Positions 90 through 12,870 of a DNA stretch of 12,870 bases are shown in pieces (positions within the stretch are counted from its first letter, which is position 1; each line of letters opens with the position of its first letter). The stretch lies in UHGV virus genome UHGV-2005248, one strand, 5' to 3'. The position numbers and the translations under genes were made by a program. This stretch comes from a virus. Below the pieces are notes generated by a model. The model was not told the DNA's origin, did not search any database, and worked only from the letters and a program-made list of their open reading frames with translations.

Positions 90-144
90 TGGAGCACCTC
101 AAAAACACCATCATACACTAAATCAGTAAGTTGGCAGCATCACC
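1..144 (-). mobile_element. IS1 insertion sequence, terminal part (element continues past window start); 23-bp terminal inverted repeat at 122-144
   Basis: Reverse complement of 91-144 reads ggtgatgctgccaacttactgatttagtgtatgatggtgtttttgaggtgctcc, which I recognise as the IS1 end; reverse complement of 1-89 encodes the InsA N-terminus. Recognition from memory, not a database search. Confidence 0.8.
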
Positions 145-750
145 CCGAGGATTGAAAAGCTCAAATCTCTTGATGTTTCTTTTGTTTTTTGAGTAAAAGT
201 TTAAAGTGAAATATATTAGCACCTGTCTAAGATCGTAAACACTAAACTTCCTATCTCCTGATTTTATTTCCACAAGAACATTTGAATAATAAATATCGCC
301 ATATGAATTATTTATTACTCCGCATCCATCGAATTGTGGAGACACTTCAATTTGGTTTTCCATTCCATATCGAGACAAAATGTTTCTTGCTATTTCCCTT
401 ATGGCATTGTACTCAACCATGCTTAAGGGTAGCTTGAAGTTAGAACCGTAAGCGAACCGCTGTAGATATTCTTTTGTTTTTTCAAAAACAACCTGAAAAT
501 CAGCATTATGGAAGATATCATGTGCTGAAAGAATATTTCTGTCTAACGAATCATTCTGTATTGCCCTATATAAATTAAATGCGCACTCATTAACAAAGAC
601 GTTATTTGACCTATTAGCGCAGTCATCTAGAGGAGGATAAACGTCCTCGATGAGACTGCCGTTAATGATGCGTATGAAATTATTAGCATTTGGAAGCAAT
701 TGATTCCAAAATGAAGTGAATTTTCGAGAAAACGTTAATTCAGATATCAT
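118..750 (-). CDS. hypothetical RT-associated protein (candidate effector); 3' end disrupted by IS1, so the stop in the ORF track is not native
   Basis: 210-aa ORF whose start overlaps the RT stop by 4 nt. Its last 8 codons and stop (GDAANLLI, 118-144) are encoded by the IS1 terminus, so the native C-terminus is unknown. No hydrophobic TM segment. Weak D-x8-E-x-K pattern (GDIYYSNVLVEIK) that could be a PD-(D/E)xK nuclease motif. Confidence 0.55.
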   Translation of the reverse strand: MISELTFSRKFTSFWNQLLPNANNFIRIINGSLIEDVYPPLDDCANRSNNVFVNECAFNLYRAIQNDSLDRNILSAHDIFHNADFQVVFEKTKEYLQRFAYGSNFKLPLSMVEYNAIREIARNILSRYGMENQIEVSPQFDGCGVINNSYGDIYYSNVLVEIKSGDRKFSVYDLRQVLIYFTLNFYSKNKRNIKRFELFNPRGDAANLLI

Positions 751-2375
751 AGCGCATCCTCAAGATTTCTTGCGGTATGCCTTTTACTTGCCCAATCCCT
801 GTAAATCACCTCTACAAAGTTGAATGTTTTCTTATTATGCTCTCTCCAGTGCCGTCCTTCATCACCTAAGATGTAACTGGAAACGATCAATAGTCTTCTC
901 TGCAACGGATGCATTGCAGAGAAATTTTTTTTGATATCAGAAAGCCATGCGTAAGAATTAATTTTTGCCATTGACTGTGTAACTATGTTCTTGACTAAGA
1001 TGCTTTCTGGATTGTTATTGTATATTTCACTAAGGATTAGGGTGGATTTTTCTGAATTTTCTTTTGAGAGCATTCGGGCTACATAGGCTAAGTTGAGCTC
1101 AGTACTCAAAATATATGAATCTTGTTTAATTAGTGCAGTTATTTTATCAAGAATAATATCTTTGGTTTCTGTGCTTAATTTTTGCCAGTTGGAGTTAGCT
1201 ACTTGAATTATAGTTGTAAATATTGGATATAACTCATGCAAGTTATTAAACATTACTTTGAAAGCACTACTTATTATTTCATCTGATGTTGCTGAGAATG
1301 CCTTTATCAAATGCTTGCTAAAAGATTGGTTAATTTTTGATTTTTGTAACTCACTACTCAGCATAGCTAACAAGTCAAAATCTTTTAAAGATTCCTTTAT
1401 CTCTTCATATTCCTCTATCGCATTTGCTGAGTAAGGATCGAATCTTATAGGAAGACTCATAAATTTAGCCTTCATAGGAGATTCTTCATCTTCATCATTA
1501 CCATGCAACTTAGCTTTAGTTACTGAAAGGAACTCTTCTTTAGTAACAATATTGGTTTTTTGTTTCTGTAAAGTTAGCCCTTCATTTTCCATCAGTTTTT
1601 TACTAAGCAAAGTTAAAATCTTATGAGCATCCTCTCTAGAGTTACAAAAAATAACAAAGTCGTCGACATAACGCTTATAGTTGATTCTATTCATAGACAA
1701 TAATTTATCAATAGAATCTAGAGCTAGTTCTGCTAATATTCTAGAGGCAGGACATCCAACTGGTACTCCATATGATTTTGTTTCACTAAATGTCTGTAGT
1801 AATTTCTTGATTTTCCCAGAGTAATCTTTATTGGGGTCGACTCTATCTAACGCATTTTCTAAACGGTGGTGATAAATACGCGGATAGAAATCTGCTATAT
1901 CGCATGTAAGTACATACTTTATTTCATCGTTAGAACATTCAGAGATACTGTCTTCTTGATATTTTCTCCAAGAGATCTCTTTATCAAAAAGAGAACCATC
2001 AGCAAGGTTTGGTTTAAAGCGATATGAATAAACCTGCGTTTTAGTAGATCTATTCCTTTCAATATCATCAGCGATTTTTAAAACTAACCCAAGAAAAAAA
2101 GCATTCCAGAATGGATCAATTTGGGTCGCCCACCTGTAACCATAATAACCAATACTTGAAAAGCTATTAATTATGTTTGGTGGAATCTCGATCCTTTTAT
2201 TTTCAAAGTCATTAAATGTTTGCATTAATGCAGTTTTTACTTTCTCCTTATCATCTTCAAATAACCGACTTTCAAATGGGTAAGGGAAAATATCTGTATC
2301 GCCGTGCTTTATAATATTTTCCAATGCAAGCTCAAAGCAATTTTCTAGTTTACTACTATCAAACTCGTTACTCAT
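747..2375 (-). CDS. reverse transcriptase, Abi-class (AbiK/AbiA/Abi-P2-like) with long C-terminal extension
   Basis: 542 aa. RT palm motifs in canonical order: LTCDIADFYPRIYHH (motif A-like), YGVPVGCPASRILAELAL (motif B-like), YKRYVDDFVIF (YxDD catalytic motif), GLTLQKQKTNI (motif D/E-like). The pattern resembles AbiK as I recall it rather than retron or group II intron RTs. AAGGAG Shine-Dalgarno 7 nt upstream of ATG. Strongly AT-rich. Confidence 0.85.
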   Translation of the reverse strand: MSNEFDSSKLENCFELALENIIKHGDTDIFPYPFESRLFEDDKEKVKTALMQTFNDFENKRIEIPPNIINSFSSIGYYGYRWATQIDPFWNAFFLGLVLKIADDIERNRSTKTQVYSYRFKPNLADGSLFDKEISWRKYQEDSISECSNDEIKYVLTCDIADFYPRIYHHRLENALDRVDPNKDYSGKIKKLLQTFSETKSYGVPVGCPASRILAELALDSIDKLLSMNRINYKRYVDDFVIFCNSREDAHKILTLLSKKLMENEGLTLQKQKTNIVTKEEFLSVTKAKLHGNDEDEESPMKAKFMSLPIRFDPYSANAIEEYEEIKESLKDFDLLAMLSSELQKSKINQSFSKHLIKAFSATSDEIISSAFKVMFNNLHELYPIFTTIIQVANSNWQKLSTETKDIILDKITALIKQDSYILSTELNLAYVARMLSKENSEKSTLILSEIYNNNPESILVKNIVTQSMAKINSYAWLSDIKKNFSAMHPLQRRLLIVSSYILGDEGRHWREHNKKTFNFVEVIYRDWASKRHTARNLEDAL

Positions 2376-3552
2376 TCACATTCTCCTTAATAAAAATATA
2401 ATCTGAATACCACTGCATCATATCACGGCGTTTATCAATATATTGAGCATGATTATACGTACCTCTAATATTATTCTTATCTATATGAGCAAGCTGTATT
2501 TCTATCCAAGCCGAATCATATCCTTTTTCGTGGAGGATAGTAGATAAGGAATGTCGAAATCCATGACCAGTAAGTTTTCCACCATAACCAATACGCTTGA
2601 TAACTTGGTTAATACTCGCCTCACTCATAGGCTTGTTCGGATCGTTCCGCCCCGGAAAAACATAACTATACTTCCCTGTCATCATCTTGAGTTCATTTAG
2701 CAAATCTAACGCTTGAGTCGACAAAGGCACAAGGTGTGATCTGCGCATTTTCATCCTTTCAGCAGGAATTTCCCAAATAGCGTTATCTAAATCAAATTCT
2801 GACCATAATGCCGCACGTAATTCGATGGTTCTAACACCTGTAATCATGAGCAATTTCGTGGCAATCAGGACAAGCCGACTTCCGGTATATCCGTTTAAGG
2901 CGCGAAGAAAATCAGGTATCTCATTAGCCTTTAAGAACGGGAAATGATTTGATTGGTGTACATTGAGGGCGCTTGAAAGATCCGCAGCAGGGTTAAACTC
3001 AGCCCTTCCAGTAGCAATGGCATAGCGGAAAACTTCTGAGCATCGCTGCCGAACTTTGCGCATTTTTTCTAATGCACCGCGCTTTTCGATTTTACGCAGC
3101 ACATTAAGCAGTTCTAGCGGTTTAATCTCTCCCACTGGCCTTGTTCCCACATAAGGAAAAATGTCGTTCTTAAACGCTTCCATGATGTCTGATGCATATC
3201 CCGCCGACCATTTGGTAGACTTCTGTTGATGCCACTCTCTGGCTATCTTTTCGAAGGCGTTCTCTGACTCTGTTTGCAGAGCCAGCTTTTGCTCTTTTCG
3301 AACCTCACTAGGGTTCTTTCCTTCTGCCACAAGTTTTCGAGCTTCATCACGACGGGAACGAGCATCAGCAAGAGTGATCGTTGGGTAAACACCAAGCGAG
3401 ATCATTTTGGGTTTACCGGCATAGCGATAACGAAATCGCCAGCTTTTACTTCCATTTGGCTCTACAAGTAAAGACAACCCTTGCCCATCCCCAAGTGTAT
3501 AGGCTTTAGCTTCAGGTTTAGCACGGCGAATCTGCATATCATTTAGGGGCAT
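2368..3552 (-). CDS. int: tyrosine site-specific integrase, P4 family
   Basis: 394 aa. N-terminal Arm DNA-binding signature (AKAYTLGDGQGLSLLVEPNGSKSWRFRYRYAGKPKMISLGVYP ... RDEARKLVAEG). C-terminal catalytic region with HGFRHS box and terminal Tyr region RGTYNHAQYIDKRR. Immediately downstream of a tRNA 3' fragment in the same orientation. Confidence 0.92.
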   Translation of the reverse strand: MPLNDMQIRRAKPEAKAYTLGDGQGLSLLVEPNGSKSWRFRYRYAGKPKMISLGVYPTITLADARSRRDEARKLVAEGKNPSEVRKEQKLALQTESENAFEKIAREWHQQKSTKWSAGYASDIMEAFKNDIFPYVGTRPVGEIKPLELLNVLRKIEKRGALEKMRKVRQRCSEVFRYAIATGRAEFNPAADLSSALNVHQSNHFPFLKANEIPDFLRALNGYTGSRLVLIATKLLMITGVRTIELRAALWSEFDLDNAIWEIPAERMKMRRSHLVPLSTQALDLLNELKMMTGKYSYVFPGRNDPNKPMSEASINQVIKRIGYGGKLTGHGFRHSLSTILHEKGYDSAWIEIQLAHIDKNNIRGTYNHAQYIDKRRDMMQWYSDYIFIKENVNE

Positions 3553-4097: not shown

Positions 4098-4529
4098 ATG
4101 AAAAAATCACTCGTGCTAGTTATGTTTCTTTTCTCAGCTTGTGTTACTGCGAGTAATGACCTAGATCTATATGATAATCAAGGCAACGCCGTCGTTTATA
4201 TTTCACTTGATGACGAGTTGACTTTATATAGTTGGGAGGGTGAACCAAGCGCCTACCTTAAACATAACCAGAACAATGAGTTTGATGTTTATGGATTCAA
4301 TGGGAATCATTTAGGCTGGTTTACTAATGGTATGTTGATTGATCACGATGGCTATGTTGCCTGTGCAGTAAAAGACATGGTTACCACACCTAATTTGCCA
4401 TCACTTAAATCACTTAAGAGCCTCAAGCCTCTAAAATCGCTAACGGAACTTCCCCCTCTTTTCCCGCTGCTAAAAAATGCCTTTGGTCAGACAAATTGTT
4501 CTTTGTTAGTAGCTTCAGGTGTTGCATAA
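4098..4529 (+). CDS. hypothetical exported protein, possible lipoprotein, with short SLK tandem repeat
   Basis: 143 aa. N-terminal signal-peptide-like segment MKKSLVLVMFLFSAC with Cys after a lipobox-like FSA. AT-rich. C-terminal PSLKSLKSLKPLKSL repeat. Confidence 0.5.
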   Translation: MKKSLVLVMFLFSACVTASNDLDLYDNQGNAVVYISLDDELTLYSWEGEPSAYLKHNQNNEFDVYGFNGNHLGWFTNGMLIDHDGYVACAVKDMVTTPNLPSLKSLKSLKPLKSLTELPPLFPLLKNAFGQTNCSLLVASGVA

Positions 4530-4847
4530 ATCCACAACGGATGCATTTCTTGAAAGGGATGCCCCTCCAGAGGATAAAATGCTTACGGTATCCGCTCCTG
4601 ACACGGAGCGGACCAATCAGGTGGTTGTAAGGTCCGCTATGAGCAAGAAGCGGAAGTTGGCAGTTTTGTGGACTGTCCCCACAAAAGTGACTACAGAAAT
4701 AGTTGCAATTCATAATTGATCATGGGTTGTCAGTTAAACTCGTGGCGATTTAAATAGACTAATTGGGAGTGCGTCCATTACTTATATCTTGTAATGTTAA
4801 CTATCAGAAATGATACAAAGATAATATGTCTTTAAAGAAAAGACTGA

Positions 4848-4875
4848 TGGCGAAAAGTGGCCCGATGAGGGCCAC
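4848..4875 (-). terminator. rho-independent terminator downstream of flxA
   Basis: Perfect 7-bp stem GTGGCCC/GGGCCAC (4857-4875) with 5-nt loop, followed on the minus strand by TTTTCG. Lies 14 nt after the flxA stop. Confidence 0.55.
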
Positions 4876-4889
4876 AATACGGCTGTCAC

Positions 4890-5222
4890 TTAGACGTAAA
4901 TATCAATGGTGCCAGCGGTATTTGTATCGTCTTTTTTCTCTTCTTTTTTATCAGGCTGAACTGTCGCGTCTTCATTCTTTTTCTCTGCCTGCTGCCTTAA
5001 CAACTGCTCCAGTTGAGCCCTGAGGCTTTCAATTTGCTTCTGTACCAATGCAGCCATTTCTTTTTTCTGCTGTGTCGTCATCCCCTCTTCCGATGAGATT
5101 TTCCCAAGCTTTTCAGTCAGCACCTGAATTTGTCTTGTGATTTTGGCTATTTCTGATGTTCCTTCCGGGGCGGAGTTGTTTGAAATAACGGTTGAGGTAT
5201 TTCCCTGAATTGTGACAGACAT
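4890..5222 (-). CDS. flxA: FlxA-like protein (FliA-regulated small coiled-coil protein)
   Basis: 110 aa with a Q/K/E-rich coiled-coil middle (MAALVQKQIESLRAQLEQLLRQQAEKK); size and composition fit the FlxA family. Preceded by a near-consensus sigma-28 promoter and an AAGGAG Shine-Dalgarno. Confidence 0.7.
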   Translation of the reverse strand: MSVTIQGNTSTVISNNSAPEGTSEIAKITRQIQVLTEKLGKISSEEGMTTQQKKEMAALVQKQIESLRAQLEQLLRQQAEKKNEDATVQPDKKEEKKDDTNTAGTIDIYV

Positions 5223-5272: not shown

Positions 5273-6023
5273 ATCGTATTTCTTGTGTCATTAATTGTTT
5301 GATGTTCAGATTGTTTTCCTCGCGGGCTGGCGCGCCTCAGAAAGTAAAGCTTGTTGACAGGGGTAAACGTTCGGCAATAATTTTCTGCCGCATGCGGGTG
5401 TTGCATAAAACGTGCTACGTTCCTTTATCGACAGGTCAGGTCACCGCTCACCCGCCGACGAGAAAGCAACACTGACATGCTAAAGCAAAAAATAGATGAA
5501 TAAGTTGAGTTGTGCATATGTAGCCTGACCGTCACAAAGTATATGGTGTCTGTACCAGTAAGATGATGGCCGGACTCTTTAAAAACGAGCTGACCTGCAC
5601 AATACAGGATGGACTTAGCAATGGCTGCTCCTGGCACATAGCAGCCCTAGAGACAGTGGCGTAAAGTCATGGAGGGTCGGTGGCAGGAGATGCAAATCCT
5701 CTCATACAAAAATACGTAAAATCAATAACGGCTAGAGCTAGAAATCATTCAATACTCGCACTATCTAACATTTACCAGCCAACCGCAGCACGTCTTGCAT
5801 ACGACCTGTCTGCGGTTTCAATCACCTCTCACCACCAGTCCCATCAATAATAATTAAACAGCGCCTAAACAAAATAAATAACAACAAGTCAACAACCTCG
5901 ACAGGATGCCGATGGGATGATGAAGAGATAAGAAAGAATAACTAGTAAAGCCCTAAAACGTCAGCGTTCAGACGCGTTTTTTACTTAACCGGTAACAAAT
6001 ACGTTGTATCATAGCAACATAAA

Positions 6024-7973
6024 ATGATTGTTCTAAATCAGATTAACTCCTCACTTTTGTACAATGTCGCTTACAGGTATACCATGAAATCCGAGACGCT
6101 AACTGTCCAACAACTTTTTCAAGACCGCCGACAATACTGCGTTCCATTCTATCAACGTGCCTATGTATGGACTCAGCGAAACCAATGGTCAGCTCTACTG
6201 GAGGATATCCTAGAGAAAGCACAATCCCGGCTCTCGGGTACAAAACCAACTCCCCATTTCCTTGGTGCAGTGGTACTGGAACCTCAACCAAAAAAAGGAT
6301 TATTAGGTGTAGATTCCATACATATTATTGATGGTCAGCAACGATTGACCACTCTTCAATATGTTCTGGCATCCATCCGATTAGCATTACGTGCGACAGA
6401 TCTTTCCAACTTAGAGCCTCTCATTTCGTCTTGCCTGAAAAACTCAAACGAAGACACAATGCGAAATAAAGAAGTAGAGCGCTTCAAACTGTGGCCAACT
6501 TTTCGGGATCAAACTCATTTTATTCAAAGTTTTAATGTTGAAAATATTGACGATATCCGGAATGTATTCTCTGATAGTTTCACGCAGCATGGTACGTTGC
6601 GTAAGCATTTTAATCACCCGCCATCACTAGAAGCATTATGTTTTTTTACTGAAGCCTTTATAAAGTGGATTAAAATAGAAAATCACTCACCACGAGAAAA
6701 TGCTGTAGCATTAATTGAGGCTGTCTTGACGGATCTGAAACTAGTAAGCATATTTCTCGAGGCTGAAGATGACGCTCAAATAATTTTTGAAACATTAAAT
6801 GGCAGAGGTGCGGAACTTCATGCCACAGATCTTATTCGCAATTATATTTTTATGTGCGCTGAACATGAAAATATTAATGCTGTTGAATTATATGAGAATG
6901 AGTGGAAGATCTTTGAAGATACGTACTGGTCAGAAAGACAACGTCGTGGTCGTATTAATAAACCACGCATGGAGTGGCTAGTGCATGCGACATTGCAATC
7001 AGAAAGGCAACGTGAAATCGATCTGTCTCGTCTTTACAATGAGTATCGTGATTATGTAAGTAAGGACTTGCCTTCACAACGAGCAGATCTGCAAGTAAAG
7101 CGCCTCAAACAATATGCATCACAATATAAAGAATTGGTTGGTGGTTTTGGCACAACCCCCATCTCACACTTTGGACATCGCATCGCAGCCTATGATGTGA
7201 CGACACTTTATCCGCTTGCTTTGTTCATTTCGATAGCTAACATCGCCGATGATGAGAAAGCAGCCATGTATAATGATCTTGTCTCCTACGTAGTACGAAG
7301 AGCCGTATGTGGCCTGACGCCAAAGAATTACAACAATGTATTTATGAATGTATTGCGGCACTTGTCTAAAACGGAAATTTCCAGTGTTGAGTTACGTAAT
7401 ATCCTCAATAGCTTAAATGGCGAAGCCTCACGTTGGCCTGGGGACTCAGAATTTCTCAACGCTTGCATCAATGCTCCACTTTATCCTGGCAGGCTCGACG
7501 CACCGAAAATGCGCTCAATGTTAACGGAACTTGAAAGAGAACTTTGTCGCCAAGTGAAGACAGAGAAGCCTGATGTTCCAAATCTTTCTAACCTCGATAT
7601 CGATCATCTTATGCCTCAAAGTTGGTATTCCTGTTGGCCTCTCGAAAATGGTCATATGGTGACAAATTCAGATGCTACGGTATTGAACCAAATTGTTCTG
7701 TCTGGAACCGATCTTACCCCTGAACAGCTACTGGTAAGGAAACGGCAACAAGCGATAGCTACGTTGGGAAATCTAACATTGCTTAACCTTAGCGTAAACC
7801 GTTCTGTTCAGAATGCTGTATTTCTGAAAAAACGTGATGCTCTCATCGTCCACACCAATCTACGACTGAACATTCCACTTATAGTTAAGGATAAATGGGA
7901 TGAGGATGAAATCCTGGAGCGGGGTAAAAAGTTGGGGGAAATTGCATTGAAAGTATGGCCAAAACACGATTAA
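6024..7973 (+). CDS. GmrSD-like type IV (modification-dependent) restriction endonuclease, DUF262 + DUF1524 fusion
   Basis: 649 aa from the first ATG; the more likely start is ATG 6084 (MKSETLTV...), which has an AGG upstream. N-terminal DUF262/ParB-like signature including IIDGQQRLTTL. C-terminal His-Me finger (DUF1524-like) DIDHLMPQSW ... GNLTLLNLSVNRSVQN. Confidence 0.75.
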   Translation: MIVLNQINSSLLYNVAYRYTMKSETLTVQQLFQDRRQYCVPFYQRAYVWTQRNQWSALLEDILEKAQSRLSGTKPTPHFLGAVVLEPQPKKGLLGVDSIHIIDGQQRLTTLQYVLASIRLALRATDLSNLEPLISSCLKNSNEDTMRNKEVERFKLWPTFRDQTHFIQSFNVENIDDIRNVFSDSFTQHGTLRKHFNHPPSLEALCFFTEAFIKWIKIENHSPRENAVALIEAVLTDLKLVSIFLEAEDDAQIIFETLNGRGAELHATDLIRNYIFMCAEHENINAVELYENEWKIFEDTYWSERQRRGRINKPRMEWLVHATLQSERQREIDLSRLYNEYRDYVSKDLPSQRADLQVKRLKQYASQYKELVGGFGTTPISHFGHRIAAYDVTTLYPLALFISIANIADDEKAAMYNDLVSYVVRRAVCGLTPKNYNNVFMNVLRHLSKTEISSVELRNILNSLNGEASRWPGDSEFLNACINAPLYPGRLDAPKMRSMLTELERELCRQVKTEKPDVPNLSNLDIDHLMPQSWYSCWPLENGHMVTNSDATVLNQIVLSGTDLTPEQLLVRKRQQAIATLGNLTLLNLSVNRSVQNAVFLKKRDALIVHTNLRLNIPLIVKDKWDEDEILERGKKLGEIALKVWPKHD

Positions 7974-8223
7974 TGCAATTAATAAAATGATTATAGCGGC
8001 TTTACATTAGTAAGGCCGCTACTCACTATTAAATCCTTTAATTTGCAACAAGAACAGCAGTGTCAGCCCTAGGTTTCGGACTTTGTACCGCTTATCTTGT
8101 CTTCAAAAATCAGCTCGCATCCTGCACAGCTCAACGCATTACGTTGTAGATCGGTGTTCTGGTCATTTGTTGATACGCGTACATAGCCAATAAGCATGGT
8201 AGCTCCCCCTGACAAAAGCAGGA

Positions 8224-8559
8224 ATGATGCCATTTGCTCGTTATTTCTGCATTTTCATAAACGTTGGTTTTGGAGAAGGTGCTAACTGGGTTATGTTACC
8301 TGGAGGAATGATAATTCAGCGTGTTTATCTTGGATTTCCTGTTGGCACCAATGTAAGACACATAACTCTCCCCCGGTCGTTTACAACAACGAACTATTCC
8401 ATCTCAATTAACTGGAATGATATCGGTACTGTAACAACTGAAACACAATCGCCAGCAAATGTGGCGGTTGTTCATCAAACAAAATCATTAACAGGGGCCA
8501 GCATCTGGCAGGCAGGTCCCGGGGGATTTAATGTGGACATTATAGCGGTGGGGTATTGA
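8224..8559 (+). CDS. tail-fibre C-terminal fragment (alternative variable tip, S'-like), likely remnant
   Basis: 111-aa ORF ending 2 nt before the plus-strand tfa. Frame is closed upstream at 8200-8202. Position mirrors the tail-fibre tip genes of invertible segments; no recognisable motif. Confidence 0.35.
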
Positions 8560-8560
8560 T

Positions 8561-8989
8561 ATGTACGTATGGAGCGCTAAAGCAAATGGCTTTTTCCCCA
8601 TATCGGAGAAAGAAAAATTTGAGGCATCAGGTCTGTGGCCTGATGATGGTGTAATAGTCAGTGAGGAAGAACATAAAAAGTTATTTATGGATATTCCACC
8701 AGGAAAACAGATTGGAACACTGAATGGAAAACCAGCACTGATAGATATTCCTCAGCCGACCCAAAAGGAATTAATAGCTATTGCTGAAGTTAAAAAATCC
8801 CAATTACGGGAAAAAGCTGACAGTGAAATATCCTGGCGTCAGGATGCTGTTGATGCTGATATCGCAACTGATGAAGAAACTTCAACTCTCACCGAATGGA
8901 AGAAATACCGAGTGCTGCTGATGCGTGTTGATACTTCAACAGCACCCGATATTGAATGGCCTACGCCTCCGGCAGTTCAGGCCAGATGA
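8561..8989 (+). CDS. tfa: tail fibre assembly protein (Tfa chaperone)
   Basis: C-terminus [23 protein letters not shown] is the conserved Tfa C-terminal signature (compare TfaE ...[23 protein letters not shown] as I recall it). Confidence 0.85.
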
Positions 8990-9566
8990 CATCCGGCGCG
9001 GTGCTGGGATCTGTTGCCGTCACCGCGTCAATGTAATCCAGCACAGCGTTAAGCCGGGTTGTTTCTGCCTGCGTCAGTTTCCGCCCGGCCTGTAATTTCA
9101 GCTGAATCAGACTAATGGAAGCCATTGCTGCATCAATCAGTGACTGGCGCTGTGCTTCTGCCGCTTCTACTGCGGCGCTATGCTGTGCCTCAGTATCGGT
9201 CACCCATTTCTCACCATCCCATTTATCGTATGGCGTTAATGGGGCGATAGTGGTTGTATTTTCAGGGTAATCACCCGGAACTGTGATTTCTCTGGTATCT
9301 CCCGTTTCGGTACTATAGACAACTTCACCGCGATGGTCTGGCACATATTCCCATGAATTTAAATCTACAGAGCGACAGATTGCATAACCAGCTTTATGTA
9401 TACCTGGTGCATCCAAACAGGAACATGCCGGGATACCGACGCCGACAGCGAGATATTCAGTTGATGTAGAAATATATTCCCGCGTTTCACCATCATAATT
9501 ATAAATGATAATGTCTCCTGCTTTTATGGCAATGAGTTCGCTATTTAATATAGCTTTATTCATCAT
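8961..9566 (-). CDS. tfa: tail fibre assembly protein (second, divergent Tfa)
   Basis: 201 aa. Tfa-like core ([14 protein letters not shown]) and C-terminal [14 protein letters not shown]. Start overlaps the tail-fibre gene stop by 4 nt. Converges on and overlaps the plus-strand tfa by 29 nt. Confidence 0.8.
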
Positions 9567-10237
9567 GCGGCCCTCACAATATAATTAAAAGCGATGTTAC
9601 GAGGACGAGTTTCTGTACCTACATTTCCACTAATTTCACCATAACGTTTAACACTACGAGAGCTAAGAGCTCGTAGTGAGGAAGGCACCTTAAGACCGGG
9701 TTCGTCCGTTTTAACTATTCCCCCGTCACCGTATGTAGCCAGTATTCCTGGGTTTACTCCTTCCCGTGCACTTCCTGCGGCGAGTCCGTCCCCTGTCCAT
9801 AATTCCATATAGTGTGCATGGTCCAAAATTGTGTGTGGCTGCCAATTAAGCAAAGCGCGACCAGTATCAATCCCGCGACCGTCATCCCAGCCACGAATAA
9901 ATTCACCGCGTAAATCAGGCAATTTATTGGTCTGGTAAGCCTTTGCCAGTTCCGGGTATTCTTCAGCAGAAAAAGCCGCACCATTGCATTTCAGCCAGCC
10001 TGTTGGCGGAGTGGCTGAGGGCCACGGAACAGGCACACCAACGGGTAATGCCGAACCTTCTCCCAAACCAAGGTTTTCGAGAGCCGTTTTCACCGTGCCA
10101 TCCGATTTGATATCGCCAAACGGATTCTTGCGGCTTAACAGCAGCGCACGAAGCGCGGTAAGCAACTGGTCGTGCCGCCCCTTCTCCAGGCTGGCACCGG
10201 ATGCCTCCACCACGCTGCAAAGCTCCTCCTGCAACAT
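9563..10237 (-). CDS. tail fibre protein, C-terminal part with phage tail-collar domain (5' portion missing)
   Basis: Collar-domain-like motif [40 protein letters not shown]. The frame stays open upstream of the first ATG to 10339, then hits a stop beside N-gene-derived sequence. Confidence 0.7.
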
Positions 10238-10854
10238 GTCAAAGTAGTCATCATCCAGATCGGTGGCAGGCGTGCCTGTCTGGGGGTTACCACGGGTAAA
10301 ACCGTTCTTACCCGCGCCGAACTTATCCTTCTGCGCGGTTTACCGATAACGTCGTTCTGCACGAAATCCGCCACACCATCGATACTGAAACCGCTGAAGC
10401 TGTCACTGATGCAGTCATCCAGTGCAGAACAGGATGACATCAGCGTCTGCGCCGTCGCCGCACCTGATGTGGGGTAAGAGAGTTCTCCTGCTTCGACAAA
10501 CTTCAGGTCAAAGCGGACAATACGCCCTTCACTTTTCGATGTGCTGACCCGAACTTCCCCGTCAACACAGACTTTCAGCTCACCATATGTCGGGTGGACA
10601 AGCGTGCCGGGACCGGGTTTATTCAGCGCTTCAATCAGGCGATCGCGCTGGTCAAAGCAGTCATCTCCCACCACATAAGCTGTGATGGACGGGCGGAAAG
10701 TGACTTTTCCCAGATCTTCGGTATAGGGCTTGTCGCGGTTCGGGTATTCATGTGTTTCCACACGGCGACCGGTTCCCGCACTTTCTTCTTCAACCTTAAA
10801 CGGCACACCTCGAAATGACGCATCCTGTAGCCTGTCTTTCCACGTCATATACAC
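10135..10854 (-). pseudogene. Mu-like DNA circulation protein N, N-terminal fragment; reading frame degenerates after about aa 170
   Basis: N-terminus MYMTWKDRLQDASFRGVPFKVEE..RRVETHEYPNRDKPYTEDLGKV..AYVVGDD..RDRLIEALNKPGPGTLVHPTYG fits the DNA-circulation N-terminal domain pattern as I recall it. The last ~70 aa of the ORF are R/C/W/P-rich, out-of-frame read-through of tail-fibre sequence. Confidence 0.6.
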
Positions 10855-10860
10855 TCCGAA

Positions 10861-10889
10861 AATAAAAAAGCCACCTATTAGAAGGTGGC
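10861..10889 (-). terminator. rho-independent terminator after the 176-aa moron gene
   Basis: Stem GCCACC/GGTGGC (10870-10875 / 10884-10889) with 8-nt loop, followed on the minus strand by TTTTTTATT (10861-10869). Confidence 0.6.
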
Positions 10890-10909
10890 CTTGTAATGAA
10901 TTTTATTAA

Positions 10910-11440
10910 TTAGCGGGTCAGAAACAACGAATCTTTATACTTTTGCTGTTGTTCATTTAAATACTTAGCTGTTTCATCGCTGGCAAATGGAAATATTACC
11001 GTATTTTTAGGCATGGTAATTTCTTTTTTGTCCAGCGTCAGAGTAAACATAGGAACATACTGAGCAGAGTAACGCACCGCAGAAACGAGCTCTAGTTTAG
11101 ACTCTTCAATAACACTTAAATTATCCAGGCTAACTTTCTCTTCATCTTTTTTCTTTGACGCATTTAAAGTTTTTATTACTTTATTTAATTTCTCCTGAAA
11201 ATCCTCCTTAAAGTTTTCAGGATTGCCGTCGACAACAAGAATCTGTTCACCCTGATTATCTGGAAAAATAATCTTTGCACTTATCAATTTATTTTCTTTA
11301 TAAACATCACCAAGTTTTATGGCTCCTCCAGATAACTGAATAATATGTTCATCTTTAAAGGAGATGTTGCCAGAGATTATGAGAGATGAAAAAATAGCCG
11401 CTGCTCCAAGAATTACACTTGCTGTGATATAGCCTTTCAT
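10910..11440 (-). CDS. hypothetical membrane-anchored protein (AT-rich moron inside tail module)
   Basis: 176 aa. Single N-terminal hydrophobic helix ITASVILGAAAIFSSLIISG, then a K/E-rich soluble domain. Markedly more AT-rich than the flanking tail genes. Has its own terminator. Confidence 0.6.
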   Translation of the reverse strand: MKGYITASVILGAAAIFSSLIISGNISFKDEHIIQLSGGAIKLGDVYKENKLISAKIIFPDNQGEQILVVDGNPENFKEDFQEKLNKVIKTLNASKKKDEEKVSLDNLSVIEESKLELVSAVRYSAQYVPMFTLTLDKKEITMPKNTVIFPFASDETAKYLNEQQQKYKDSLFLTR

Positions 11441-11531
11441 TTTTCGCCTATTAACATTTTTCTAAATGTGCATTAATTCTATCACTCTATTTATGACTTA
11501 CAACCAGCAATACATGTGAGGGGAATCCTGG

Positions 11532-12455
11532 CTACCAAAATCGGGTATAGCCAACATCGTGATTTATATCAATGCCACTGGAGCGTGTTTCCGTAACCCG
11601 CATACCTGGTGGCATATTTATAAATGATACCTTGATCTCACCATCAACTTTTGGCGCGGTAGCTTTATTAATCATGAAGGGATTCGAGCCTGTGGCATCG
11701 GAGGCGTTGTTTGCCTGAGCCGGATCCACCGCCGGATAAGGAGTGTATCCCCGTGCCGGTATTCCCGTCCCATAAGCATCATAAGCACCCGCGCCCCACT
11801 GCGCAGAGTTAATGGCATCGACCGTGTCACCGGAACTGTCGGTAAACCACTCAATAATTGGCTTCAGCTTGTCCCACATATCCTGAAACCACTTAACAAC
11901 CGGCCCCCAGTTATTGATCACCATCCCCAGCGGCGACCAGGCAAAAACTTTCTTAAGGAGTTCCCAGCCAGCCTCAAAATAAGGACCAATGGTTTCCCAG
12001 AGCTTCTTGAAATAAGGTCCGACAACATCCCAGTTAGTGATAATTAATCCCGCAGCCAGGGCTATCGCCGTCGCAATCATGCCAATCGGCGTCATCGACA
12101 TGATCCTGCTGACAATGCTGATGGCACTGCCCACGCCCATCAATCCCAGTTTCAGAATCGCAAGACCGGCAGCAAGCCCGACGACGCCGCGAATAACCCG
12201 GGGATTTTCATCCGCAAACTTCGTGAATTTTTCCCCCAACTCCCCCAGCCATTGCGTGATATTTTTGGCGTCACCAGAAAATGCGCCGCCAATAGCCGCA
12301 AGGCCGTTAGTTGCGGTCCCCGTCATTGCCTCCCACAGGTTGGACAGCGTACCAAGCTGTGCCTGAACACGTTTATTCAGGCTGGCCTGTTTATTCATCT
12401 TTTGCTGGATCTGATCGTAACCATCCTTTCCTTTATCGATCAGCGCATTGACCAC
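11532..12455 (-). CDS. phage tail tape measure protein, C-terminal portion (5'-truncated)
   Basis: 307 aa from GTG. G/A-rich hydrophobic segments (GVVGLAAGLAILKLGLMGVGSAI, IGMIATAIALAAGLII) and W-rich repeats typical of tape-measure C-terminal regions. Frame is open only to 12518, so the N-terminal bulk of the gene is absent. Confidence 0.6.
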   Translation of the reverse strand: MVNALIDKGKDGYDQIQQKMNKQASLNKRVQAQLGTLSNLWEAMTGTATNGLAAIGGAFSGDAKNITQWLGELGEKFTKFADENPRVIRGVVGLAAGLAILKLGLMGVGSAISIVSRIMSMTPIGMIATAIALAAGLIITNWDVVGPYFKKLWETIGPYFEAGWELLKKVFAWSPLGMVINNWGPVVKWFQDMWDKLKPIIEWFTDSSGDTVDAINSAQWGAGAYDAYGTGIPARGYTPYPAVDPAQANNASDATGSNPFMINKATAPKVDGEIKVSFINMPPGMRVTETRSSGIDINHDVGYTRFW

Positions 12456-12555
12456 CTGAAGGGTTTCGGCATCATCACCAAATATTGCCTTAAGTACACC
12501 TGTTCGCTTACGGGATGTTTATGGAACGCTTTAACGAGTTATCGGAGTTACGCAA

Positions 12556-12870
12556 ATGCGCATGAATGTTTTCGAAATGGAAGGGTTTCTTCGTGGGAGA
12601 TGTGTACCGCGAGATCTGAAAGTAAATGAAACAGATGCTGAATACCTGGTGCGTAAATTCGATGCGCTTGAAGCTAAATGTGCAGCACAGGAAAACAAAG
12701 TAATACCAGTGTCAACTGAACTGCCACCAGCAAATGAAAGTGTTTTGTTATTCGATGCTAACGGAGAAGGCTGGCTAATTGGCTGGCGTTCTCTCTGGTA
12801 CACCTGGGGACAAAAAGAAACCGGAGAATGGCAGTGGACATTTCAGGTCGGGGACCTTGAAAACGTCAAT
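12556..12870 (+). CDS. hypothetical phage protein, DUF551-like (partial, runs off window end)
   Basis: Open frame from ATG 12556 (GGAG upstream) to the window end with no stop; not in the ORF track because it has no stop in the window. W-rich pattern ELPPANESVLLFDANGEGWLIGWRSLWYTWG resembles DUF551 prophage proteins as I recall them. Confidence 0.45.
   Translation, partial: MRMNVFEMEGFLRGRCVPRDLKVNETDAEYLVRKFDALEAKCAAQENKVIPVSTELPPANESVLLFDANGEGWLIGWRSLWYTWGQKETGEWQWTFQVGDLENVN

Follow-up and report, generated by a model that had tools for sequence, protein, structure and literature searches.

Probable remains of an e14-type P inversion module, with a truncated pin gene and both crossover sites, in an Escherichia coli prophage

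The tail-fiber locus of virus genome UHGV-2005248 described herein is very likely a decayed e14-type P DNA-inversion module, the Escherichia coli relative of the Mu G/Gin and P1 C/Cin systems. It was analyzed in a window of 12,870 nucleotides, to which all positions refer. Elements of this kind have already been described, meaning that the locus represents a known system in decayed form. Between positions 8074 and 10341, the window matches an e14-like E. coli prophage that has an intact pinE (EC974) at 98.8% identity, with 28 substitutions and no gaps (blastn). The flanks of the segment are 94 to 98% identical to pinE/stfP of the K-12 prophage e14. The host-range layout of Mu G, P1 C, and e14 P, which a first-pass annotation had recognized in this DNA, can be narrowed by the match to the pinE-bearing prophage to that of an e14-type P segment.

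In its intact form, the element encodes the serine invertase Pin, which is assisted by Fis; the enhancer to which Fis binds is located in the 5′ part of pin itself. Pin acts on two 26-bp sites in inverted orientation, the first within the fiber gene and the second a short way upstream of pin, and exchanges the DNA at their central dinucleotide. Inversion exchanges the C-terminal receptor-binding tip of the fiber together with the matching assembly chaperone. The parts that survive here are both crossover sites, both cassettes of a tip and a tfa gene (with their ORFs open), and the first 124 nt of pin; the remainder of pin, the start of the fiber gene, and all baseplate genes are lost. The decay that the first-pass annotation had suspected is borne out by the missing 3′ part of pin and by a 4511-bp deletion that took away the fiber start and the baseplate genes. 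The element is located at the proA/thrW locus. A tRNA scan of the window returned none, so the window contains no attachment-site tRNA.

Inverted 26-bp sites

Matching inverted crossover sites, which had been reported as missing from the ends of the cassette, are present at 8252–8277 (plus strand) and 10083–10058 (minus strand), and both contain the published e14 repeat. They were located by inverted-repeat and motif searches. The pin-proximal, pixR-like site at 8252–8277 reads TTTTCATAAACG TT GGTTTTGGAGAA, and the fiber-proximal, pixL-like site at 10058–10083 on the minus strand reads CTCTCGAAAACC TT GGTTTGGGAGAA. The top inverted repeat of the region is 22 nt long (8259–8280 and 10055–10076) and 91% complementary. 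The only occurrences of the published e14 repeat, TTGGTTTGGGAGAAGG, are at 8264–8279 (plus strand) and 10071–10056 (minus strand), with 0 expected in 200 shuffles, and the sequence of the fiber-proximal site is identical to this published repeat (PMC12529663). Both sites share the central TT (8264–8265 and 10071–10070), which would be the point of exchange. The distance from site centre to site centre is 1806 bp.

Comparison of six loci supports this assignment: the outer half-sites do not vary among them, and each inner half cosegregates with its tip. In addition, the homology to FG92-1, which is 99.9% identical over 4.5 kb, breaks at 8280, right at the repeat.

Truncation of pin

The 42-codon 5′ remnant of pin lies on the minus strand at 8069–8197 and is recognized as a resolvase N-terminal domain (PF00239, E = 9e-9). 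It starts with an ATG at 8197 and ends with a TAG at 8071–8069 (MLIGYVRVSTNDQNTDLQRNALSCAGCELIFEDKISGTKSET). Herein, codons 1 to 41 are those of pin and are followed by one foreign codon and the stop; the intact gene comprises 184 codons (555 nt including the stop). The stub is colinear with intact pinE through pin nt 124, and homology ends at window position 8074, as seen by blastn and by alignment with pinE and the cin genes of P1 and P7. In relatives, the same stub carries the PGAP label "recombinase family protein, incomplete, missing C-terminus". The earlier statement that no recombinase gene is present therefore holds insofar as no functional invertase gene adjoins the cassette, and the ORF list of the 12.9-kb window contains no intact invertase ORF there; it fails for the gap of about 250 bp, which houses the remnant. 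The size of this gap between cassette and nuclease gene was given correctly, as the latter ends at 7973.

The stub keeps whole the interval homologous to the Fis-dependent recombinational enhancer (8108–8179, minus strand; pin nt 19–90), as defined by homology to P1/P7 cin. It is identical to pinE at 69 of 72 positions and to P1 cin at 55 of 72. GenBank annotates the enhancer at nt 19–90 of P1 cin and nt 19–86 of P7 cin; these annotations, together with PMC3798978, served to place it. In the Hin system, about 100 bp separate the enhancer from hix (PMC3798978); in the present locus, the distance of pin nt 19–90 from the centre of pixR is 86 to 157 bp. The stub may hence still function as an enhancer. 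A scan of it for degenerate Fis motifs (GNNYRNNWNNYRNNC scoring) gave weak candidates only, at the same positions as in P1 cin. A simple scan for sigma-70 promoters around the stub and the pin-proximal ORF (7950–8450) found none, a result that is neutral as to expression of this ORF.

The neighboring gene at 6024–7973 (plus strand) encodes a predicted GmrSD-type type IV, that is, modification-dependent, restriction enzyme. Both of its Pfam domains exceed the cut-offs, namely GmrSD_N (DUF262; 6.9e-34) and GmrSD_C (DUF1524/HNH-type; 5.1e-20), and PADLOC assigns it as mREase_IV over its full length with 1440 bits. The gene occupies the cargo slot that is taken by mcrA in K-12 e14, where the order is stfE–pinE–mcrA–icdC. 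The same junction of DUF262 gene and stub is found in H22, EC_J_9, IHE3034, UTI89, and FG92-1, and the arrival of the DUF262 gene coincides with the loss of the 3′ part of pin. A hairpin follows the gene on its 3′ side, with arms of 12 nt at 7994–8005 and 8010–8021 (plus strand) that are 92% complementary and enclose a loop of 4 nt. It sits within the foreign DNA that replaces the 3′ part of pin and is probably the terminator of the DUF262 gene; a simple terminator scan did not call it.

Alternative fiber tips and their chaperones

Between the two sites, the segment carries two cassettes that converge. As the first-pass annotation had described, the two tfa genes overlap, sharing 29 nt, and each is preceded by a fiber-tip ORF; Caudo_TAP domains are found in both tfa products. 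The tfa gene of the gp53-like tip (8561–8989, plus strand) encodes 142 amino acids (Caudo_TAP, E = 1.7e-33). That of the collar-domain tip (8961–9566, minus strand) encodes 201 amino acids (E = 4.4e-31) and is of the tfaE type, the name it bears in the annotation of relatives. The ORFs ahead of them are located at 8224–8559 (plus strand, gp53-like_C) and 9563–10237 (minus strand, Collar domain), respectively.

The pin-proximal ORF at 8224–8559 matches gp53-like_C with an E value of 7.5e-5, just below the Pfam cut-off. Its first 14 codons lie outside the segment and are followed from 8266 by the alternative fiber C terminus, which is unfused at present. Its counterpart in relatives is labeled "gp53-like domain-containing protein" by PGAP, and K-12 stfE is its positional equivalent. 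The variable fiber C terminus with the collar-domain tip (9563–10069, minus strand; Collar domain, E = 2.1e-15) is currently joined in frame to the constant fiber part across pixL. Analysis of the reading frames shows open in-frame fusions in both orientations of the segment.

Loss of the fiber start and baseplate genes

Beyond pixL, a remnant of the constant N-terminal fiber part, of the stfP type, extends over 10072–10341 (minus strand) and is 97.6% identical to K-12 stfP. The initial 19 nt of the fiber gene are missing, and with them the start codon; the translation of the remnant has a stop upstream and no start. Homology to the EC974 prophage ends at position 8268 of the latter, whose fiber CDS starts at 8287, and resumes on the other side, where window positions 10340–11828 correspond to 12780–14268 of that prophage. 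Compared with EC974, the deletion of 4511 bp has removed ymfQ, baseplate J, gp46, V, the baseplate assembly gene, and the C-terminal two-thirds of the circularization gene. The remaining N-terminal third of this Mu gpN-like DNA-circularization gene (10342–10854, minus strand; DNA_circ_N, E = 1e-34) is joined out of frame to the fiber remnant, creating a fusion ORF at 10135–10854. A complete fiber gene with a start, positioned downstream of baseplate genes as in a functional tail-fiber operon, is not found. Because the fiber start and the baseplate genes are deleted, inversion in this window would change no functional tail fiber.

Inversion in trans

Upon loss of the 3′ part of pin, the segment would be unable to invert itself, yet it would stay a competent substrate for an invertase of the Gin/Pin family supplied in trans. 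The first-pass annotation had taken the switch to be frozen or decayed. Relatives with the stub junction carry the segment both ways, making frozenness an unsafe inference. Genomes with DUF262/stub junctions derived from the window divide into 12 and 67 between the two orientations, and those with the ST95 allele into 24 and 79, many of them being 100.0% identical over 1000 nt. UTI89 and IHE3034 can be compared directly: their flanking stretches of 4513 and 2588 bp are 100% identical, and between these an interior of 1939 bp is precisely inverted. Judged from these genomes, identical stub alleles in other E. coli have demonstrably inverted since the truncation. Since both orientations occur behind an identical stub junction, a mechanism of inversion in trans is needed as an explanation: the orphaned switch has been flipped after truncation by an enzyme from elsewhere and is not intrinsically frozen. 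The deletion allele of the window itself was found in one orientation in four of four assemblies.

Such inversion has precedents, as PinQ and PinR invert the e14 P segment in trans, Fin of Fels-2 inverts the Salmonella H segment, and PinE inverts Mu G (PMC12529663). The segment is probably still flippable by an invertase encoded elsewhere. Possible sources were sought with a chimeric query that combines a DUF262 marker, the 3′ part of pinE, and pinQ, and that returns the number of matching places per chromosome, plasmids being separate records. Among ST95 genomes, about half have one place per chromosome and the others two to five, counts that do not give the nature of the extra places. Within the sensitivity of blastn, about half of 60 ST95-type stub chromosomes contain no pinE-3′-like or pinQ-like DNA; inversion may thus lie in the past or happen sporadically instead of being ongoing. 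Orientation and place count showed no significant association by estimate in a hand-compiled set, where 7 of 10 versus 11 of 27 genomes had at least two places. A Logan contig that ends 82 nt inside the segment was considered as a sign of mixed orientations and rejected; its break lies off the repeat, within part of the collar domain that is also found in other prophages.

Competing explanations

How much of the switch is left to operate in this host can be read in different ways. That it is an inert fossil, facing no compatible invertase and decaying while locked with the collar tip and tfaE on the fiber remnant, has somewhat less than an even chance. The four colinear, single-orientation assemblies of the deletion allele speak for it, as do the many stub chromosomes in which neither pinE-3′-like nor pinQ-like DNA is detectable and the fact that the prophage is already devoid of the fiber start and baseplate genes. 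Against it, all four cassette ORFs are open, with just the 28 ungapped substitutions relative to the intact prophage, and the cis sites are intact. Moreover, invertases of the Pin family are widespread in E. coli (of 5426 genomes, 5053 match one or more parts of the composite DUF262/pinE-3′/pinQ query), and minority orientations are possible, for which four assemblies are too small a sample. The literal form of the earlier claim, an irreversibly frozen cassette with neither invertase sequence nor crossover sites left, is extremely unlikely: the cassette indeed has no adjoining intact invertase ORF, but this reading is refuted by the pin stub and both crossover sites as well as by the polymorphic orientation of the same stub allele. 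Two separate and complete tail-fiber operons converging by chance would likewise yield two oppositely oriented pairs of tip and tfa. The chance of this is negligible, and the idea is refuted by a layout that is colinear with stfP–tfaP–tfaE–stfE–pinE of e14; upstream of the pin-proximal tip there are just 14 codons, a fiber shaft being absent, and this tip starts at a crossover site whose match lies within the other fiber gene. The two orientations could also stem from RecA-dependent homologous recombination, via short repeats or via cassette replacement from other prophages. Exchange between prophages does occur, as seen from mosaic cassettes and from FG92-1, whose flanks are 99.9% identical to the window and whose interior is partly different. 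For the orientations, this route is nonetheless very unlikely, as the otherwise identical interior of UTI89 and IHE3034 is precisely inverted, with breakpoints within a repeat of 15 to 20 nt, which is shorter than efficient RecA substrates, and the exchange point lies at the centre of a Gin/Hin-type site.

A further and unlikely possibility is that the module has been domesticated for defense against phages under control in trans. Herein, the pin-proximal ORF would give rise to a StfE2-like receptor-masking protein, toggled by a PinQ/PinR-type invertase, in a defense island with the type IV restriction enzyme and DRT8. In K-12, inversion driven by PinQ yields StfE2, which is made from the pin-proximal start and blocks adsorption of T2 (PMC12529663). 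The present locus has the corresponding start codon as well as both in-frame products, in relatives a CDS beginning at this start is annotated by PGAP in either orientation, the cassettes are intact next to deleted phage genes, and defense genes are nearby. However, no consensus promoter was found by the simple sigma-70 scan, the tips are unlike those of K-12 stfP/stfE (similarity being limited to tfaE and part of the collar tip), and recent decay likewise explains the open ORFs. The stub junction is, in addition, a single historical event, and its position therefore carries no statistical weight. It is quite unlikely that the orphan P segment and, of its dead invertase gene, precisely the stub with the enhancer have been kept as a host-domesticated switch that is run by the invertases of other prophages and toggles small tip proteins, which would mask receptors like StfE2 does, in a cluster with the type IV restriction enzyme and DRT8.

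Relation to other inversion systems

The decayed P module is best appreciated next to the P region of K-12 e14 (stfP–tfaP–tfaE–stfE–pinE–mcrA). Both have the same gene order, the same crossover repeat, and the same 29-nt overlap of the tfa genes (tfaP 4133–4546 and tfaE 4518–5120 of the K-12 region sequence). The published K-12 segment measures 1797 bp (PMC12529663; PMC4272514), compared with the 1806 bp between site centres here. In contrast to K-12 e14, pinE is cut to 42 codons, the DUF262/GmrSD gene stands in place of mcrA, the fiber start and baseplate genes are deleted, and the element resides at proA/thrW instead of icd. The gp53-like tip and the 142-residue Tfa are unrelated to the K-12 stfP variable part and tfaP at the DNA level, and the segment is in the opposite orientation compared with the MG1655 reference. 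Further relatives are the stub-bearing e14-like prophages of ST95-type strains (UTI89, IHE3034, S88, and APEC O1) and of H22, EC_J_9, and FG92-1, which have an identical DUF262/pin-stub junction and identical pix sites. Most stub-bearing relatives keep the full tail and baseplate module and are found at ssrA, tRNA-Pro, or icd, whereas the window allele has the extra 4.5-kb deletion.

Mu G/Gin and P1 (P7) C/Cin belong to the same mechanism class, meaning a Fis/enhancer-dependent serine invertase that acts on 26-bp sites inside the fiber gene. They have alternative Sv/U and Sv′/U′ cassettes, and their enhancer is situated within the invertase gene, at its 5′ end. At the DNA level, pinE is 72 to 74% identical to gin and cin. 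Mu Gin and P1 Cin are intact, whereas pin is truncated in the present locus. The invertase gene of P1 is directed into the segment and has cixL at its 3′ end; here, the site is upstream of the pin start. Flipping by the invertase of another prophage is likewise seen for PinQ/PinR on e14 P and Fin on the H segment (PMC12529663). Both of these segments additionally have their cognate invertase, whereas the cognate gene is dead here.

Biological significance

What seemed a frozen cassette without invertase and sites is the P-inversion module known from textbooks for e14, in which pin is truncated; RefSeq annotation had already flagged this truncation. In about 100 or more complete E. coli genomes, including the well-studied ExPEC strains UTI89 and IHE3034, the switch has lost its own enzyme to a defense-gene swap, yet both orientations exist. 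This bears on the recent claim that inversion of the P segment by the trans-acting PinQ/PinR has an anti-phage role. For the calling of invertons from genome sequence, a missing neighboring recombinase does not equal a locked segment. These E. coli genomes are a natural example of how an invertible segment can persist after its invertase is gone, provided that the cis sites, and probably also the enhancer, survive.

Identity of the invertible region

The fibre cassette contains two tail-fibre-assembly (tfa) ORFs of the Caudo_TAP family at 8561-8989 (+, E 1.7e-33) and 8961-9566 (-, E 4.4e-31), which converge with an overlap of 29 nt. Each has a fibre-tip ORF ahead of it: 8224-8559 (+) matches gp53-like_C with E 7.5e-5, just below the Pfam cut-off, and 9563-10237 (-) carries a phage tail Collar domain (E 2e-15). 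The ORF list and domain matches thereby bear out the convergent pair behind fibre tips described in the first-pass annotation, and its comparison with Mu G, P1 C, and e14 P also holds. In a megablast search of 5,426 complete E. coli genomes with 7900-10900 as query, the e14-like prophage of strain EC974, annotated in the order phage tail protein-tfaE-tfa-gp53-like protein-pinE, aligned with 8074-10341 without gaps at 98.8% identity. K-12 e14 has the order stfP-tfaP-tfaE-stfE-pinE-mcrA-icdC, its tfa overlap is also 29 nt, and it shares 94-98% identity with the window across the pin and stfP flanks; the segment interior, however, is oppositely oriented in MG1655. Hence, the locus is an e14-type P-inversion region proper, beyond resemblance. 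With crossover sites, in-frame tips, and convergent tfa genes but no intact invertase, the element is a decayed member of the e14 P/Mu G/P1 C family.

Crossover sites and exchange point

The top inverted repeat within 7900-10900 pairs 8259-8280 with 10055-10076 (22 nt, 91% complementary). It coincides with two 26-bp sites, one pin-proximal (8252-8277, +; TTTTCATAAACG-TT-GGTTTTGGAGAA) and one fibre-proximal (10083-10058, -; CTCTCGAAAACC-TT-GGTTTGGGAGAA). The published repeat of the e14 P segment, TTGGTTTGGGAGAAGG (PMC12529663), occurs in the window at these two sites only, with 0 and 1 mismatch (0 expected, 200 shuffles); matching crossover sites, which had earlier been looked for in vain, are thus present at both cassette ends. 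Invertases of the Gin/Pin/Cin/Hin type act on a pair of inverted sites and exchange strands at the 2 bp in the centre of each (PMC3798978). In the six loci compared, the outer half-sites are constant, with TTTTCATAAACG-TT beside pin and CTCTCGAAAACC-TT beside the constant fibre part, and the inner half-sites, with their T/G polymorphism and the opening codons of the tips, move as one with the tips. These half-site data would map the exchange point to the central TT, in the same way as for Gin/Pin/Cin/Hin.

Compared with the FG92-1 locus, the 4.5-kb flank is 99.9% identical and stops exactly at 8280, past which FG92-1 has the collar tip in the inverted position; homology returns at 99.6% from 10058. 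Frame analysis of the fusions yields open in-frame products in both orientations: the constant part, ending in ...KTALENL, continues into the collar tip or the gp53-like tip, and the other tip joins a 14-codon pin-proximal start. Mosaicism also extends to the cassette as a whole (window 8266-10069, FG92-1 9467-11267). The FG92-1 flanks are 99.6-99.9% identical with the window up to the crossover sites, and its interior matches at 93-95% over about 500 nt, the remainder being unmatched; the window interior is instead 98.8% identical with EC974. It appears that prophages have swapped whole cassettes, whose edges fall at or close to the crossover sites.

The pin stub and its enhancer homologue

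The ~250 bp between nuclease gene and cassette, for which the absence of any gin/pin/cin-type recombinase gene had been noted, holds a 5' stub of pin. Its ORF begins at the authentic ATG at 8197 (minus strand), is translated as MLIGYVRVSTNDQNTDLQRNALSCAGCELIFEDKISGTKSET before a stop, and matches the N terminus of the Resolvase catalytic domain (PF00239, E 9e-9). The stub retains pin nt 1-124. Homology with intact pinE ends there (window 8074), and the DNA to the left flanks the DUF262/GmrSD gene on its 3' side. In the relatives H22, EC_J_9, IHE3034, UTI89, and FG92-1, the stub bears the PGAP label 'recombinase family protein, incomplete, missing C-terminus'.

The Gin/Pin/Cin/Hin reaction is activated by Fis on an enhancer (PMC3798978), which is annotated at cin nt 19-90 in the curated P1 record and at nt 19-86 in P7. 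Nucleotides 19-90 of the stub are identical with intact pinE at 69/72 positions and with P1 cin at 55/72, and lie 86-157 bp from the centre of the pin-proximal site, similar to the ~100 bp of hin (PMC3798978). This interval is a putative enhancer; by homology, all known cis elements would be kept in the window and the enzyme alone missing. Its retention matters for the question of whether the segment can still serve as a substrate. Deletion of pinE is reported to give a locked mutant (PMC12529663); a possible reason, put forward here and not by the PinQ authors, is that a cis element within pinE was lost.

Rearrangements and their consequences

Three rearrangements set the window apart: the pin cut, a 4511-bp deletion, and an interior inverted relative to MG1655. 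The nuclease gene (6024-7973, +) contains GmrSD_N and GmrSD_C domains and is a full-length match to the PADLOC model of a type IV methyl-directed restriction enzyme (1440 bits). The slot held by the DUF262/GmrSD module (5741-8073) is occupied by mcrA, also a type IV enzyme, in K-12 e14 and by three hypothetical genes in EC974. The pin end of e14-like prophages may thus serve as a slot for cargo or defence genes, at which the swap to DUF262 clipped pin. The identical DUF262-stub junction is found in many E. coli strains, including H22 (icd), EC_J_9 (tRNA-Pro), IHE3034 and UTI89 (ssrA), and FG92-1, with prophages carrying it at four chromosomal sites (icd, ssrA, tRNA-Pro, and the proA/thrW region). 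The exact window allele is present in four public assemblies (99.97-100% identical), adjoining gpt-frsA-crl-phoE-proBA and an integrase, a position interpreted as the thrW/CP4-6 site of E. coli.

The deletion is a 4511-bp jump relative to EC974 at 10340/10341 (window 10340-11828 corresponds to 12780-14268 of the EC974 record). It took out 19 nt at the start of the fibre gene, two-thirds of the DNA-circularisation gene, ymfQ, and the genes for baseplate J, gp46, V, and baseplate assembly. The surviving N terminus of the circularisation gene (DNA_circ_N, 1e-34) now continues into the fibre remnant in a different frame. Both decay events, the pin cut and this deletion, are now mapped precisely. 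Since the fibre gene is startless and the baseplate genes are absent, inversion in the window is unable to give any particle a different host range. The four cassette ORFs have all stayed open, and the 28 ungapped substitutions relative to the intact EC974 prophage cause zero amino-acid changes in the constant part and collar tip, which fits recent decay. The open ORFs would also be compatible with an anti-phage role of the pin-proximal ORF, like that of K-12 StfE2 (cf. PMC12529663), a reading that is speculative and improbable; a sigma-70 scan of 7950-8450 found no promoter.

Surrounding genes

The left part of the window holds a DRT8 pair, consisting of a PD-(D/E)xK partner (118-750, -; PADLOC RTasPDDEXK, 6.7e-61) and the Drt8 reverse transcriptase (747-2375, -; 4.9e-166), beside a P4-type integrase (2368-3552, -). 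This island (118-3552) has a GC content of just 0.30-0.39 and is missing from FG92-1, whose locus is otherwise 99.9% identical, with homology beginning at window 3716. Positions 1-144 are 99.3% identical to an IS1 end (IS1B in EC_J_9, L003 16998-16855) and either adjoin the PD-(D/E)xK gene (ORF end at 118) or overlap it at its 3' end. Genes for a 4-fold beta-flower protein (4098-4529, PF21784) and a FlxA-like protein (4890-5222, PF14282) lie in the stretch from the integrase island to the DUF262 gene, where the FG92-1 annotation adds a ydfV fragment; these are Qin-type prophage leftovers. Additional prophage remnants make up 10910-12510: a 176-aa ORF (10910-11440, -) without family matches, whose EC974 counterpart is a 'hypothetical protein', and a tape-measure gene reduced to its C-terminal 307 codons (11532-12455, -). 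Tape-measure homology stops at about 12510, and 12506-12870 is a 99.7% match to the yfdR (CPS-53-type) region of FG92-1; this point marks a further deletion or fusion junction.

Inversion after loss of the invertase

Each junction query ran from the DUF262 3' end through the stub to the central TT and from there into either the native or the flipped interior. At ≥80% coverage, the window-derived native junction matched 12 genomes and the flipped one 67, all annotated 'DUF262 | recombinase family protein'. With the IHE3034 (ST95) allele as template, the repeated search gave 24 genomes for the native and 79 for the hypothetical flipped junction. Among the matches listed for the latter, 30/30 cover all 1000 nt at 100.0% identity, and their carriers include UTI89, S88, NU14, APEC O18, and ATCC 11775. 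Compared directly, UTI89 and IHE3034 have 100% identical flanks (4513 bp and 2588 bp) and a 1939-bp interior that is inverted with 2 mismatches, both breakpoints lying within a 20-nt repeat. Both strains bear the stub; hence, at least one precise inversion followed pin truncation, which requires an invertase acting in trans. Such inversion is known for PinQ and PinR on e14 P, for Fin on the H segment of Salmonella, and for PinE on Mu G (PMC12529663), and e14 inversion is readily observed in MG1655 cultures (PMC4272514).

By marker and probe blastn, pinE-3'-like or pinQ-like DNA was undetected in about half of 60 stub-bearing ST95-type chromosomes, so flipping of stub alleles may be sporadic or historical. 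The window's own allele has one orientation in 4/4 assemblies found. A Logan contig carrying it (SRR13582024) ends at window 9988, 82 nt inside the invertible segment; this end was considered as a sign of mixed orientation and rejected, as repeated collar-domain sequence explains it better. Of the verdict 'frozen or decayed', decay stands, given the cut pin and the lost fibre start and baseplate genes, and frozen does not follow, stub alleles elsewhere occurring in both orientations; the window's own allele may still be locked in its host. The stub is annotated in RefSeq relatives and inversion in trans is published; the addition here is population evidence for flipping of a P segment orphaned by the loss of its invertase.
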